A DNA stretch of 57,618 nucleotides from an uncultured Clostridia bacterium (GCA_944393325.1 CALXZU010000004.1:1-57618); one strand, 5' to 3'; shown: positions 31,411 to 51,457, counted from the stretch's first letter. Numbers and translations: made by a program. Notes: a model not told the origin generated them from the sequence alone.

Positions 31411-31604
31411 TAATCACATTTATTATTCATATAAAATTTTTTCATTGCAAGTTTATCTTGCACTCCACGAAGCGCTTCTCCAAATCTCTGGAAGTGTACT
31501 ACTTCTCTTTCTCTCAAATATCTTAATGGGTCTAATACATCTGGATTATCTCTACATAAATCAATTAATTTTTCATAAGTTGCCCTAGCTTTTTGTTCTG
31601 CTGC
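31410..31604 (-). pseudogene. cotJC: cotJC (Mn-catalase family) 3' fragment
   Basis: AAEQKARATYEKLI...DPLRYLREREVVHFQRFGE; similarity begins at the GCAGCAGA core (31597-31604). Confidence 0.88.
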
Positions 31605-31623
31605 ACCTTTGAAAGTACAACAA
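31597..31623 (-). other. Recombinase-proximal attachment junction: core plus attP arm
   Basis: Minus strand TTGTTGT-ACTTTCAAAGGT-GCAGCAGA, directly after the recombinase stop codon. Confidence 0.85.
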
Positions 31624-33186
31624 TTAAATTTTCCAATGTATTTCAATAGGTTTCTTCTTTGTTTCTGGGTCTTTTGCTCCTACTTCTATGTAATCAATTA
31701 AGTTTTCAACCATCTCTCTTGTTAATTCTGTTACATTAGTATACTTTTCTAATATATATTTTTTATTATTTAAAGCATCTTGCTCATTATCAATCTTCTG
31801 TAATTTTTGTTTTCTTTCATTCAATATTTTTTCAAGGTTTTCTTTTTCTTTATTAAAATTTTTGTTAAATTCTAAAAATTGTTCTTGCGTTATTATTTCA
31901 TTAACTTTATCCAAATATAAATTTTGTATAATTTTTGTTTTTTTATCTATAGTCATTTGATATTGAGAAATTTCTTTTCGCAATTCTTCCTTTTCATTTT
32001 TAAATTGTTTTAAAATAATACTTTCTTTTAATTCATCAACATTTAAATATTGTTCTATTAATGAATTCAGTTCCTTTAATACTGTCCTTTTAAGTACATT
32101 TTCTGATATGAAACTACCCTTGCAAGATGATTTATCGATTTGTCTTGTTGGACATCTTAAATATCTATCTTCACGAGTTTTACTACTTTTTAGAATATAG
32201 CCACAATATTTACATTTGCACTTTTTAGCAAATACTCCTATTTTTCCACCTTCAAATGGTTTAAAATTATTATTTACTTTTTTTTGTACCCTATTCCATA
32301 ATTCTATATCAATTATTGGTTCATGTGTATTTTTTACTATAACCCATTGATCTTTTGGTTTTGGTTTATTCTTTTTACTTTTATATGAAATACTACCATA
32401 TCTACCTTGTACCATATTTCCTATATACATCTCATTTGTTAACATACTTGAAATTGAAGAATACTTCCATAATGTTCCTGTTTTTCCTTTAGGTTTTTTA
32501 TATGCAATTCCTTGTTCTAATTTATATTGTGTAGGGTTTGGTATTCCTCTATTATTCAATATTCTAGCTATTGCTGTTTTCCCATAACCTTGATCATATA
32601 ACTTAAATACTTCTCTTACAGTTTGTGCAGCCTCTTCATCTATAATTAAATGCCCTTTTTTATCTGGATCTTTTTTATATCCATATAATGCTATTCCTCC
32701 AGTAAATAAACCATTTTTTCTTTTATTTTCTAAAACAGTTTTTATATTGTCTGATAAATCTTCTAAAAACCATTCATTTACCAGTCCATTAATTTGCCTT
32801 GACTTTTTATTTCCTTTTATATTAGTATCAGCATTATCAACCAAACCAACAAATCTTATTCCCCATTCAAGGAATAAACCATTTATGTATTTTTCTACTA
32901 ATTCCAATTCTCTTGTAAACCTGCTTTGACTTTTACATAAAATAATATCGATTTTTCTTTCTTCAGCTAACTTTAATACTTTATTAAAATCAGGTCTATT
33001 TCTATCTGCACCAGTATAATCATCATCACTATAAATACCTTCTATATCCCAACCTTGTTTTATCGCATACTCGGCTAGCATAAGTTTTTGGTTTTTTATA
33101 CTTGTACTATCATCCTCCTCATTTTCTTTATTTCTATCTTCCTCTGATAATCTGCAATATATTGCTACTTTTAATTTTTCGTTCAT
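31624..33186 (-). CDS. Large serine recombinase, SpoIVCA-like
   Basis: IYCRLS catalytic Ser, YSDDDYTG, SRFTR, recombinase domain, zinc ribbon CKYCG...RC...C, coiled coil. Confidence 0.93.
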   Translation of the reverse strand: MNEKLKVAIYCRLSEEDRNKENEEDDSTSIKNQKLMLAEYAIKQGWDIEGIYSDDDYTGADRNRPDFNKVLKLAEERKIDIILCKSQSRFTRELELVEKYINGLFLEWGIRFVGLVDNADTNIKGNKKSRQINGLVNEWFLEDLSDNIKTVLENKRKNGLFTGGIALYGYKKDPDKKGHLIIDEEAAQTVREVFKLYDQGYGKTAIARILNNRGIPNPTQYKLEQGIAYKKPKGKTGTLWKYSSISSMLTNEMYIGNMVQGRYGSISYKSKKNKPKPKDQWVIVKNTHEPIIDIELWNRVQKKVNNNFKPFEGGKIGVFAKKCKCKYCGYILKSSKTREDRYLRCPTRQIDKSSCKGSFISENVLKRTVLKELNSLIEQYLNVDELKESIILKQFKNEKEELRKEISQYQMTIDKKTKIIQNLYLDKVNEIITQEQFLEFNKNFNKEKENLEKILNERKQKLQKIDNEQDALNNKKYILEKYTNVTELTREMVENLIDYIEVGAKDPETKKKPIEIHWKI

Positions 33187-33282
33187 TTTATCAATTTCCT
33201 CCTAAATTAAAATTCAATAAAATGAACCAACACTATAATATATTTTATAATATAATGTTGGTTTCGTAAATTGTATGTTGGA

Positions 33283-33384
33283 TTATTTATTGATACTTAA
33301 ATTAACTATTTTTTGCCAGACTTCATTAAATTTTTTTCTTCTTTCCTCATCATTAGTTGAAATAAATACATTTATTATATCCAT
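33283..33384 (-). CDS. 33-aa ORF upstream of the recombinase, candidate directionality factor
   Basis: GAGGTG RBS then MDIINVFISTNDEERRKKFNEVWQKIVNLSINK*; not in the ORF track. Confidence 0.55.
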   Translation of the reverse strand: MDIINVFISTNDEERRKKFNEVWQKIVNLSINK

Positions 33385-33458
33385 GACAGCCACCTCATTT
33401 AATGATATTCAAATTTTTCATTTTTATAAACAGATTTTAATATTTGTATTATTATTAT

Positions 33459-33941
33459 TTACATTTCATTATTTATTATTTCATCTGCTAACTTTTCTAT
33501 TTCAACGGGAGAATGTAGTTCCATGAGTGTCAAAATATAGTTTCCGAATAATTTGCTTGTTATTTTTAAATTTCCAGAACTTTTTAAATTTTCTCTTGCA
33601 ACTATTCCATAAGACGCTACTTGTTTTCTTGTAATAAATTCTGTTTTTTCTTCTTTTTCTAAAGCTATCCTTTCAAAATAACTTTCATCTTTAGTAGCTT
33701 TATCAATATCAATTCCTAGTGAAATAATAATTCCCTTATCTACTTCTTGCATTTCTTTTGAATTTAATGTTCCTATATAATATCTTAATCTTTCTTTATC
33801 AATGACTCTTATTTGCTCAAGTAAAATTAAAGAATTTTTAGGTAATCTTTTTGCATCACCTTTTATAAAAATGTGAGTAGGCAATTTTGCCTTAACTTTT
33901 ACTTTACTTGTAATAGGTGCAATTATTACTGTTGGACTATA
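33459..33941 (-). pseudogene. 5'-truncated PemK/MazF-family toxin with C-terminal extension
   Basis: YSPTVIIAPITS...LPTH...LLEQIRVIDKERL...IGTL; N-terminal segment and start absent. Confidence 0.75.
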
Positions 33942-33959
33942 AATATAAGAAGTTCGTTA

Positions 33960-50600: not shown

Positions 50601-50789
50601 TATTTCATGTTCATCTAATAAACTATCAGATATAGCATCTATTAGTTCTTCTTCTATTTCTTCTTCTATTCCCTGGATTCTTTCTTCTAATTCTTCCTGT
50701 GTTTCATTTTCCTTTTTATTCCATTCCTCTAAATTAATATCATCTATTTGATTTATTATTTCTTCTATTTCCTTAAATTCTTCCAACAT
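47691..50789 (-). CDS. 1032-aa protein with C-terminal PPP-type metallophosphoesterase
   Basis: SDLHGQ, GDAIDRGPDG, GNHE, GHTP, IDCGS; C-terminal part paralogous to the 931-aa protein. Confidence 0.82.
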   Translation of the reverse strand: MLEEFKEIEEIINQIDDINLEEWNKKENETQEELEERIQGIEEEIEEELIDAISDSLLDEHEINEEEAIKEAREKIQKEYEIYQEAFDIDNNGKLILKNNEELSRLGYNTNEEIEKLNSVANNYNNPNLYIESIRKSIKEVKDIDTEIDRKLEIAKIYISAKIRGEEPVISSNVIKTQKYEDNNKYIGTTKQLSRVPIVQNEFVYNSGLISRSYIRYMPDLPKISNNTQLSNNTMATSNVMPRQRTKVANPTKLQVLRNMEKKIDKSNELTKQKIKARTELKMAFKEFEGKELNEAENNSLKQRIAKIEKKYPNTVNEKILSRLYESFKIKQPKEKSNGLDSELETIELKEEEQQEPLINPPVNNGTKHQNNLLEKRQERKIRSPKIGKLAIGATLGILKSKGKKKLTDLIGSAKKIRTKANDSRRQLRQSVIEKENDKNINKENNQKEKTEPSKQASRDEIKDVINKSLRMSDIIKYQKGAIIPIINHTVNYLKENDDENVQKFLDKTLKQIENIPAINLLNQKYNVLIFDYISSLYKDGISTEGREIIPKDDNKKYYYTYILNRKIGENISENIQLNQQRLEKIKEYYDENSEKIERGYLEILRKQNLKKKASLYEKLKSSKEYSKAIQDLNLSTENDYIRLLTIKEDLKNGVYRRTIGSFTNKMEYERLFDTIIKRFNNGEQFSKKALEDLGDICYEGISDNFENRVIEPKIDLAKRLYSKITNIEENKKVYGRLLNIRKLELNPIADKKKIRQIDKIIKEKGLRRDSEIVIRDKATINQYVCSDLHGQYEIYEKIVNSIGKNDKLYILGDAIDRGPDGIKILQDIARRQEKGQVEFFMGNHEYMMLQSLFLGNKQVEKVWTSDSNEGKKTKEDFDKLSVEEKGKIKDLLLNALVYKEVNTGDEKIHLVHAKAIQDSNKKEERVKDLLNTERQEDLETAVWTRKGDKKSSENDEVWKDEEIGKDNEFTIIGHTPTSGTIDLAKGYVNIDCGSSYFGNECLLRINDGKVMYVDNFEGCKQQMKDEHEEIR

Positions 50790-50927
50790 TTTTGTTCCCC
50801 CAAAAAAACATAATTTCTTTTATATTATACCAAATTATCGAAGTTATGTCAATTTGTTTTACATTTACTGGTAAATAGTTTTACTGGTTTTTATAAAAAT
50901 TAAATTCATCAACATTAACTTGATTTA

Positions 50928-51155
50928 TTATATTTTTATTGCTACAACCATTTCATTGCTTTCTACAATATTTATTATTCCATTGTATTTATACTTTGCA
51001 TTTGTAAAATAGACCTCATATCCATATTCTTGAAATTTATCTCTTGCTAATATCAAAAAAGCATTTTCATCTTTCTCAGAAATATTAAGTTCAATCTTTA
51101 CTTCATAATAAGTACATATTATTTTATTAGCATTTGACTTTAGTTTATTTTTCAA
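50928..51155 (-). CDS. Small hypothetical protein
   Basis: 75 aa ORF, start uncertain. Confidence 0.45.
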   Translation of the reverse strand: MKNKLKSNANKIICTYYEVKIELNISEKDENAFLILARDKFQEYGYEVYFTNAKYKYNGIINIVESNEMVVAIKI

Positions 51156-51163
51156 ATATGTAT

Positions 51164-51308
51164 TTATTTCTTTAGTAATTTTAATAATACCTCATTAATA
51201 GGTTCAGATGGTCTATGTTCTCTTATTTGTTCGTTTCTTTTTTCTAATAGTGCATCTACAATAAGTTTTCTTTCTTCTTCGTTAATCTTAATTTTTATTT
51301 TTTTTCAT
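51164..51308 (-). CDS. 47-aa ORF with one apparent extra A after the start codon
   Basis: GGAG RBS; an A7 instead of A8 run gives MKKIKIKINEEERKLIVDALLEKRNEQIREHRPSEPINEVLLKLLKK*. Confidence 0.45.
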
Positions 51309-51424
51309 CCTATTTTTCTCCTATGATTATTTTACTATATTTTCTCTCAAATCTTTTTCTTTGTCAATATAGTCTAATATTCAATTTTCTTTATCGTGTT
51401 GATTCATTTTATTATCTTTTTCAG

Positions 51425-51457
51425 TTGTTGTGCCATCATAGTAGCACCATCTGCTGC
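51425..51457 (-). other. Distal attachment junction: core plus attP arm
   Basis: Minus strand GCAGCAGA-TGGTGCTACTATGATGGC-ACAACAA. Confidence 0.85.

Follow-up and report, generated by a model that had tools for sequence, protein, structure and literature searches.

A non-phage island in the spore-coat gene cotJC of an uncultured Clostridia bacterium and its predicted GA-centred serine-integrase attachment sites

The 57.6-kb contig CALXZU010000004.1 from an uncultured Clostridia bacterium (26% G+C), here called the window, is part of a 1.83-Mb metagenome-assembled genome from chicken gut (GCA_944393325.1). On the - strand, a gene for an Mn-catalase family protein is present as two pieces which are separated by nearly 20 kb of other DNA. 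Which element has split this gene, at which base pair was it inserted, and does it leave the gene again? We consider it likely that the intervening DNA (31599-51451) is a non-phage integrative island, put into the spore-coat gene cotJC by its own large serine recombinase (hereafter integrase) through an exchange centred on the dinucleotide GA. This assessment covers the integrase and its attachment sites attP (element) and attB (host) with GA-centred exchange; excision coupled to sporulation is outside it and is judged separately.

Ends of the island and the interrupted gene

The junctions consist of the following parts.

31410..31598, - strand: 3' piece of cotJC (C-terminal 62 codons and stop), host DNA downstream of the element (open reading frame [ORF] list; tblastn 100%; colinear with intact genes)
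31572..31596: predicted B' half-site of attB (host) at the left junction (joined flanks aligned to empty sites L001-L012; partial outer motif)
31597..31598: left copy of the predicted crossover dinucleotide, TC on the + strand and GA on the gene sense strand, first two bases of a Glu codon (symmetry register and comparison)
31599..31623: P arm of attP, with inner TGCTGC at 31599-31604 and outer ACAACAA at 31617-31623 (conserved in relatives)
51425..51449: P' arm of attP, with outer TTGTTGT at 51425-51431 and inner GCACCA at 51444-51449 (conserved in relatives)
51450..51451: right copy of the predicted crossover dinucleotide (repeat and symmetry register)
51452..51476: predicted B half-site of attB (host; codons ...QEDLAA) (empty-site alignment; inner 6 bp equal to the P arm)
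51450..51673, - strand: middle piece of cotJC (GTEELAHLE...QEDLAA) (sequence match to intact genes)

When joined, the two flanks encode ...GDPIANLQEDLAA|EQKARATYEKLID..., and the joined DNA aligns colinearly with intact loci of 12 relatives (L001-L012); the empty site is thus present in relatives. For one of these (L001), identity with the joined flanks runs across the core and extends over 38 bp. At the protein level, the pieces share 86-92% identity with orthologues that are intact. The first ~65 codons are not in the window and were found on contig C17 (60-266, - strand). As judged from gene order, the interrupted gene is cotJC (PF05067) of the cotJABC operon, because this 5' piece is located directly downstream of cotJB (PF12652) and cotJA (PF11007). 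Joining the three pieces in silico, which needs the removal of this island and of a second element (see below), restores an open frame for a CotJC protein of 197 aa, of which residues 1-184 match positions 1-197 of the 284 positions of Mn_catalase, from the first residue onwards. Spo0A and SpoIVA are encoded in the same genome. We take cotJC to be expressed in the mother cell during sporulation, as assumed from cotJ of B. subtilis.

The sole common word of at least 8 bases between the two junction windows is the 8-bp direct repeat TCTGCTGC (31597-31604 and 51450-51457). The left junction has the + strand sequence ...GCTTTTTGT|TC|TGCTGC-ACCTTTGAAAGT-ACAACAA|TTA. The final TTA (31624-31626) is the stop codon of the integrase and directly adjoins the P arm (taa|TTGTTGT). 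At the right junction, the sequence is TTGTTGT-GCCATCATAGTA-GCACCA|TC|TGCTGCTAAATC.... The two copies of TGCTGC within the repeat differ in their origin: that at 31599-31604 is element DNA (inner P arm), while that at 51452-51457 is host DNA (Ala-Ala codons). The element proper extends over 31599-51451 (19,853 bp), which includes the dinucleotide once.

Joined in gene sense (- strand), the element ends read TTGTTGT-ACTTTCAAAGGT-GCAGCA-GA-TGGTGC-TACTATGATGGC-ACAACAA with spacers of 12 bases. A preliminary description of this DNA, made from the sequence alone, had proposed this string as an attP which is symmetric about GA, and exactly this string was reproduced on the - strand: with the centre placed on GA, 18 of the 25 positions of the arms are complementary, compared to 3-12 in 19 other registers tested. 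The outer 7-mers are each 18 bp from GA, in agreement with the distance given previously. In the natural window sequence, at least 18 matches of 25 occur at 8 of 57,566 centres (mean 7.4); given 7 possible registers inside the repeat, the chance of the attP symmetry is ~1e-3. The preliminary description had also suggested a usable set of integrase, attP and attB, with attB being the Ala-Ala-Glu motif of an Mn-catalase gene. At the level of sequence, this set holds up as well, as the recombinase of 520 aa, the stop codon of which abuts the P arm, is intact and as the Ala-Ala-Glu codons within ...QEDLAAEQKARATY... correspond to an empty site in relatives.

Position of the strand exchange

To place the crossover by comparison, 300 genomes of the same family were searched with the integrase. 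Close relatives (55-83% identical) are found in at least 10 other genera at the same Ala-Ala-Glu codons, and the genus of the window itself has three more occupied sites. In every readable flank, the integrase stop codon is followed by the P arm, GA and the cotJC 3' piece, and the matching 5' junctions read cotJC-GCAGCA|GA|TGKTGC-N12-ACAACAT. Fifteen further junctions in relatives read either host-GCAGCA|GA|TGKTGC-N12-ACAACAT or TTGTTGT-N12-GCAGCA|GA|ACAAAAAGC-host. The P arm is conserved as taaTTGTTGTACTTTCAAAG..GCAGCA (L021-L026, L040-L042, L045, L016, L018) and the P' arm as TGKTGC-N12-ACAACAT (L015, L019, L052-L061); the half-site consensus across the reconstructed attP sites is aatTGTTGTACTtTCAAAGtnGCAgCA.

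The variation among these arms is informative. Left of GA, P-arm variants are GCAAAA (L045), GCACCA (L018), ATAACA (L026), and GTACCA (L029), while the host must encode Ala-Ala there (GCN GCN). Right of GA, P' arms begin with T, A, C or G, while the host has A or G. On these alignments, strand exchange is confined to A-G-A, because the arms of the element and those of the host differ at informative positions on either side. The sequence which is shared across elements shrinks to A-G-A; the predicted stagger is one of 2 bp at GA. The comparison with att sites of the closest integrase homologues, which had been proposed as a check in the preliminary description, thus limits the exchange to A-G-A and places the dyad on GA.

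The same data bear on the idea that the 8-bp repeat is a target-site duplication generated by a DDE transposase, with the symmetry arising by chance. A DDE transposase gene is indeed present inside the element (41490-42770) but belongs to a separate 1.6-kb insertion sequence, which has its own 9-bp duplication and is missing from other copies of the island. Moreover, 6 of the 8 positions of the repeat carry different bases in the element and the host of relatives, and the symmetry recurs in 10 independent elements. Being contradicted by the comparative data, this explanation was rejected and we assign practically no probability to it.

Within A-G-A, it is very likely that the cut is at GA rather than at AG, as judged from symmetry, from the precedent of TndX and from codon logic. 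The attP symmetry is best at GA in 10 of the 11 reconstructed sites (13-21 of 25) and drops to 3-9 at an AG centre in all 11. The target of the related TndX always needs a central GA (review PMC4430133). Finally, a conserved Glu codon begins with this GA, which is invariant there, while an AG core would take in the wobble base of the Ala codon.

Several points weigh against a GA-centred exchange. The comparative data limit the exchange only to A-G-A, and AG and GA are not separable by sequence comparison alone. The A at position -1 (GCA GAA) is invariant in all P arms and is found in 15/15 occupied hosts, yet T is found there in 6/12 empty relatives (Fisher p about 0.003, with kinship among genomes not corrected for). 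This would be expected of a core base and thus of a staggered cut at AG, one base to the left, which would make the apparent GA centre off by one. However, T at +1 mirrors A at -1 in 9 of the 11 P' arms, so that the -1 A behaves as a half-site base. We thus consider an AG cut quite improbable: the A at -1 may be a needed half-site base which is mirrored in most P' arms or, less likely, part of an AG core. The third point is that the reconstructed attB is almost devoid of dyad symmetry at the GA centre (3/25). The inner 6 bp of the B arm are identical to the P arm, while the inner part of the B' arm shares nothing with it. The B' arm has a 5-of-8 copy of the outer motif (AGTTGCCC), located exactly 5 bp nearer to the centre, and the B arm is without outer motif.

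According to the model for the A118/LI integrase (Rutherford et al. 2013, PMC3783163), the outer motif should be shifted inwards by 5 bp in attB. The partial motif in B' may thus lend weak support to an A118/LI-like attB layout. In the A118 model, attP half-sites are likewise ~25 bp long, with an outer and an inner motif arranged about a central dinucleotide. By analogy to it, we infer that the outer 7-mers are motifs for the zinc-ribbon domain (PMC3783163). In contrast to A118, the putative outer motif is here ~2 bp further out, and the B arm lacks it.

With boundaries, empty site, attP symmetry, integrase domains (see below), same-site recurrence in many genera and confinement to A-G-A established, integration may be envisaged as follows. 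A recombinase dimer would bind to the near-palindromic attP with its 25-bp arms, which contain the outer TTGTTGT(AC) and the inner GCAGCA motifs. A second dimer would bind to attB, a stretch of ~40-50 bp in cotJC with the Glu codon of ...LAAEQK... at its centre. A cut with a 2-nt stagger at GA would follow in all four strands, a half-complex would turn by 180 degrees, and the ends would be religated, leaving one GA at each junction. GA would fix the orientation because it is not palindromic. It is also the invariant start of a Glu codon, and the core would therefore stay matched across many hosts.

Integrase, micro-ORF and cargo

Three features are located next to the P arm.

31624..33186, - strand: large serine recombinase, 520 aa, of the TnpX/TndX-like DUF4368 type (Pfam PF00239, PF07508, PF13408, PF14287)
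33225..33270, - strand: predicted sigma-A-like integrase promoter TTTACG-N17-TAAAAT, which overlaps a 39-bp inverted repeat (AACCAACATTATAT...ATATAGTGTTGGTT) (conserved in an alignment of 7 related elements)
33283..33384, - strand: conserved micro-ORF of 33 aa, candidate recombination directionality factor (RDF) (homologues upstream of related integrases)

The integrase has the domains Resolvase (PF00239, E=1.6e-20, residues 7-159), Recombinase (PF07508, E=1.5e-26, residues 184-306), Zn_ribbon_recom (PF13408, E=1.8e-7, residues 319-374) and, at its C-terminus, DUF4368 (PF14287, E=3.8e-8). As regards the coiled-coil motif by which such integrases control directionality, residues ~375-470 are charged and heptad-like by eye. 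The motif AIYCRLS14, with the R-L-S14 nucleophile, aligns with ALYERLS of the TnpX catalytic domain (2MHC), which is the best solved relative by sequence (E=1e-11); the integrase shares 32% identity with TndX over 96% of the query. Clostridia metagenomes contain thousands of unnamed homologues, and copies with 98% identity are found on several contigs.

DUF4368 has been described as a mark of multi-targeting integrases, being found in 63% of these compared to 0.73% of site-specific ones (10.1101/2021.11.05.467528). However, all copies with at least 55% identity and a readable junction (~16) are at the same cotJC codons, and insertion into several different targets was not found among them. As far as these junctions tell, the clade is strictly single-site despite its DUF4368 domain. 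One relative (L039/L051, G179:C7) is located at the same site in inverted orientation; its N-terminal half is 71% and its C-terminal half 46% identical to the integrase of the window. It looks like a domain-swapped relative and has an in-frame stop.

Eight other related loci (L016, L018, L023, L025, L026, L027, L040, L041) have kin of the micro-ORF (33-46 aa) a short distance upstream of the integrase. They share the motif N[VI]F.S...[ED][RK]..(A)FN[EK][VI]WQ..V.L..NK*, and for the 7 copies analysed, 20 of the 21 pairwise dN/dS values are below 1, which indicates purifying selection. This makes the micro-ORF a candidate RDF.

The promoter and operator roles assigned to 33225-33270 are predictions. 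In relatives, the inverted repeat reads AACCAATATT...AATATTGGTT. A third copy of the repeat arm (AAAATGAACCAATATTT in relatives, AAAATGAATCAACACGAT here) is found at the far end of the element (51393-51410, - strand), ~15-20 nt inside the P' arm, and co-varies with the inverted repeat. Together, the repeat and the far-end arm look like an operator set.

The remainder of the island is cargo (33459..51155), with all features on the - strand.

33459-33884: MazF fragment (Pfam)
34139-35323: viperin-like radical SAM protein (PADLOC pVip, E=3e-48)
about 35450-37240: group II intron with reverse transcriptase/maturase (Rfam RF02001/RF01998)
37973-39928: Ser/Thr kinase (Pfam)
40178-41200: Zn-protease-like protein, 340 aa (HEFGH motif; weak Pfam match, E=2.7e-7, to an ATLF-type metalloprotease domain)
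41291-42888: IS4-type insertion sequence, 1589 bp, with transposase gene 41490-42770 (9-bp target duplication TTCTACCTA at 41291-41299 and 42880-42888)
42882-47386 and 46697-50789: two paralogous pairs of metallophosphatase (~1000 aa) and vWA protein (Pfam)
50928-51155: ORF of 75 aa, last of the cargo

According to these matches, the island carries predicted anti-phage defence genes, namely the viperin and the kinase/phosphatase/vWA module. Phage structural, packaging or lysis families were not found among the island proteins (PHROGs), and a prophage was rejected for this reason. The island is a real, variable element and not an assembly artefact, because other public samples carry it without the insertion sequence (runs X5, X6, X12) and without the radical SAM gene and the group II intron (segment 33669-37327, replaced by 241 bp in X5 and X12). 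The same element occurs with different cargo in samples of unrelated studies.

Neighbouring insertions, excision and related systems

The second element splits cotJC of the same genome at GTEE, where a 13-bp word (GGAACAGAAGAAT) is shared.

51661..51687, - strand: 3' junction of the second element, with the 13-bp repeat GGAACAGAAGAAT and the arm ATTGACAACATCAT (partner junction on contig C17, about bases 45-72)

Its attP2 (ATTGACAACATCATGG...CCATTATGATGTCAAT) is symmetric at 18 of 25 positions about another GA, which also starts a Glu codon. The cargo of this element (window 51661-57618 plus C17:1-72) comprises AbiQ/ToxN (ToxIN) with RNA repeats and a PDC-S49-like NTPase. It also contains the C-terminal half of a short-chain dehydrogenase gene and a truncated RhuM/Bro-N gene (54545-54904 and 54910-55527, both - strand), which suggests further nested insertions or decay.

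In the genus, four sites are used in cotJC, each by a serine integrase of its own: Ala-Ala-Glu, GTEE, residues ~100-110 (L063, L064, L067) and residues ~117-120 (L065, L066), in the numbering of full-length CotJC. The elements at the latter two sites have 3-6 kb and integrases of 521-531 aa and about 460 aa, respectively; the attP of L066 is symmetric at 15 of 25 positions about TA. The A-G-A of the island is itself used by others. In genome G003 (L013/L014, contig C6), an element of 27.8 kb is found there in opposite orientation; its integrase is 29% identical to that of the window and its attP differs (GGTTGCA...TGCAACC). For G019 (L020), an integrase was not recovered and only the 3' junction was found, which has a similar arm at this A-G-A. 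According to Abe et al. 2013, as cited in 10.1101/2021.11.22.469490, cotJC is a frequent integration locus among the sporulation genes. It is possible, though we state this with reserve, that cotJC is a shared docking gene for mobile defence islands in this family of uncultured gut Clostridia, with at least 4 sites within ~590 bp, different serine-integrase lineages and two islands per single genome.

Does the island leave cotJC again? The sporulation elements skin and gin offer a model. The island would be kept in the germ line. During sporulation, the mother cell would excise it along with the second element and would thereby rebuild cotJC. The 33-aa ORF upstream of the integrase would serve as directionality factor for excision. 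That the island behaves like skin or gin and is excised during sporulation is a tentative reading by analogy, on which we find ourselves almost evenly divided.

The layout recalls that of skin, which interrupts sigK and involves SpoIVCA in B. subtilis and CD1231 with the RDF CD1234 in C. difficile. It is likewise bounded by an integrase, interrupts a mother-cell sporulation gene and has att sites in which a short shared core is flanked by inverted repeats. The skin integrase of C. difficile is expressed from a sigma-A promoter and excision is gated by a small element-encoded RDF (PMC5025042); here, a sigma-A-like promoter and a small conserved ORF are found in corresponding places. In contrast to skin, the target is a gene for a coat protein rather than for a sigma factor, and excision is therefore probably non-essential for sporulation. 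The micro-ORF, with 33 aa, is also not similar to CD1234, which has 72 aa. The element gin in gerE of B. cereus has the integrase GirC and the 42-aa RDF GirX (PMC5595907). Like the island, it is not a prophage, interrupts a gene of late sporulation and combines a serine integrase with an RDF of very small size (~40 aa; 33 aa for our candidate). However, gin has three recombinases and little cargo, whereas the island has ~17 kb of defence-type cargo, and the target and the att sequences differ.

Several observations weigh against the skin- or gin-like reading. Against excision as an obligatory step of development, several related integrases are broken, by a 1-nt insertion in G002 and by in-frame stops in G179, G232, G138, and G243; cotJC can therefore stay split. 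Programmed frameshifting was considered for some relatives and rejected, as that in G002 is a plain 1-nt insertion away from slippery runs. A sporulation promoter could not be assigned upstream of the micro-ORF, where a conserved TGAATAnnATTA box upstream of the ribosome-binding site is too little to call one. An RDF is not needed by TnpX and TndX, as judged from titles of references in PMC3783163 and PMC4430133. A free attP had no match in IMG/VR viral contigs or JGI metagenome contigs with strict and loose patterns. The four runs of the source study (~20x depth) showed no joints representing attB or attP at 99% likeness; they were examined, as were all public runs, as Logan contigs, and such assembled contigs cannot show rare junctions. 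Contigs which skip the 19,853 bp appear at 90% likeness; they are probably empty sites of relatives, and one of them (X25) has a divergent allele. Runs of RNA type, which are not clearly RNA, showed no junctions.

These negative results are also what would be expected of an immobile relic, with fossil att-like ends and an integrase that no longer acts, and an insertion sequence and a group II intron have indeed entered the island. We nevertheless consider a relic improbable. The integrase ORF is intact and has the above-mentioned copies with 98% identity, both 25-bp arms fit the family consensus, the same element is found with other cargo in unrelated studies, and rare junctions are not visible in assembled contigs.

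The broken integrases fit a transposon in the style of Tn4451/Tn5397, which would be excised and reinserted by its integrase alone and without tie to sporulation, cotJC being a tolerated conserved landing site. The closest characterised relatives, TndX (Tn5397) and TnpX (Tn4451/3) of clostridia, have the same domain set including DUF4368, share the core GA in the case of TndX, and act on elements which are likewise not phages. The sigma-A-like integrase promoter and the variation of cargo among samples are also in line with such a transposon. Yet these distant relatives move resistance transposons, have several targets and are described as sufficient for excision and insertion. The present clade has defence genes, and at least 13 copies (at least 55% identity) are all at one site in one sporulation gene, unlike those of multi-target DUF4368 integrases. 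A relaxase or mobilisation gene was not found in Pfam scans of the element, and a conserved micro-ORF accompanies the integrase. Four integrase lineages choose the same mother-cell gene, which suggests that the biology of this gene matters. We thus regard a Tn4451/Tn5397-like transposon as rather unlikely.

The island is a new, well-mapped member with att geometry of the textbook serine-integrase type. Its novelty is in the surroundings, namely the multi-site docking gene, the defence cargo and the candidate micro-RDF, and not in the symmetry. It provides a well-delimited triple of integrase, attP (52 bp with a dyad) and attB (~40-50 bp in a conserved coding motif). The natural variants of every arm position from ~12 relatives form a specificity data set for a single-site DUF4368-type integrase, which is unusual for this group. 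A candidate family of micro-RDFs is offered. cotJC is added to the sporulation genes with integrase-bounded non-phage islands that have been mapped to the base pair. Such islands carry predicted anti-phage defence: viperin and a kinase/phosphatase/vWA module here, AbiQ (ToxIN) in the neighbouring element. If it is true that pairs of integrase and micro-RDF excise these islands in the mother cell, there would be a germ-line/soma partition of defence cargo at a single spore-coat gene which is not essential, and the specificity of the integrases would radiate along cotJC.

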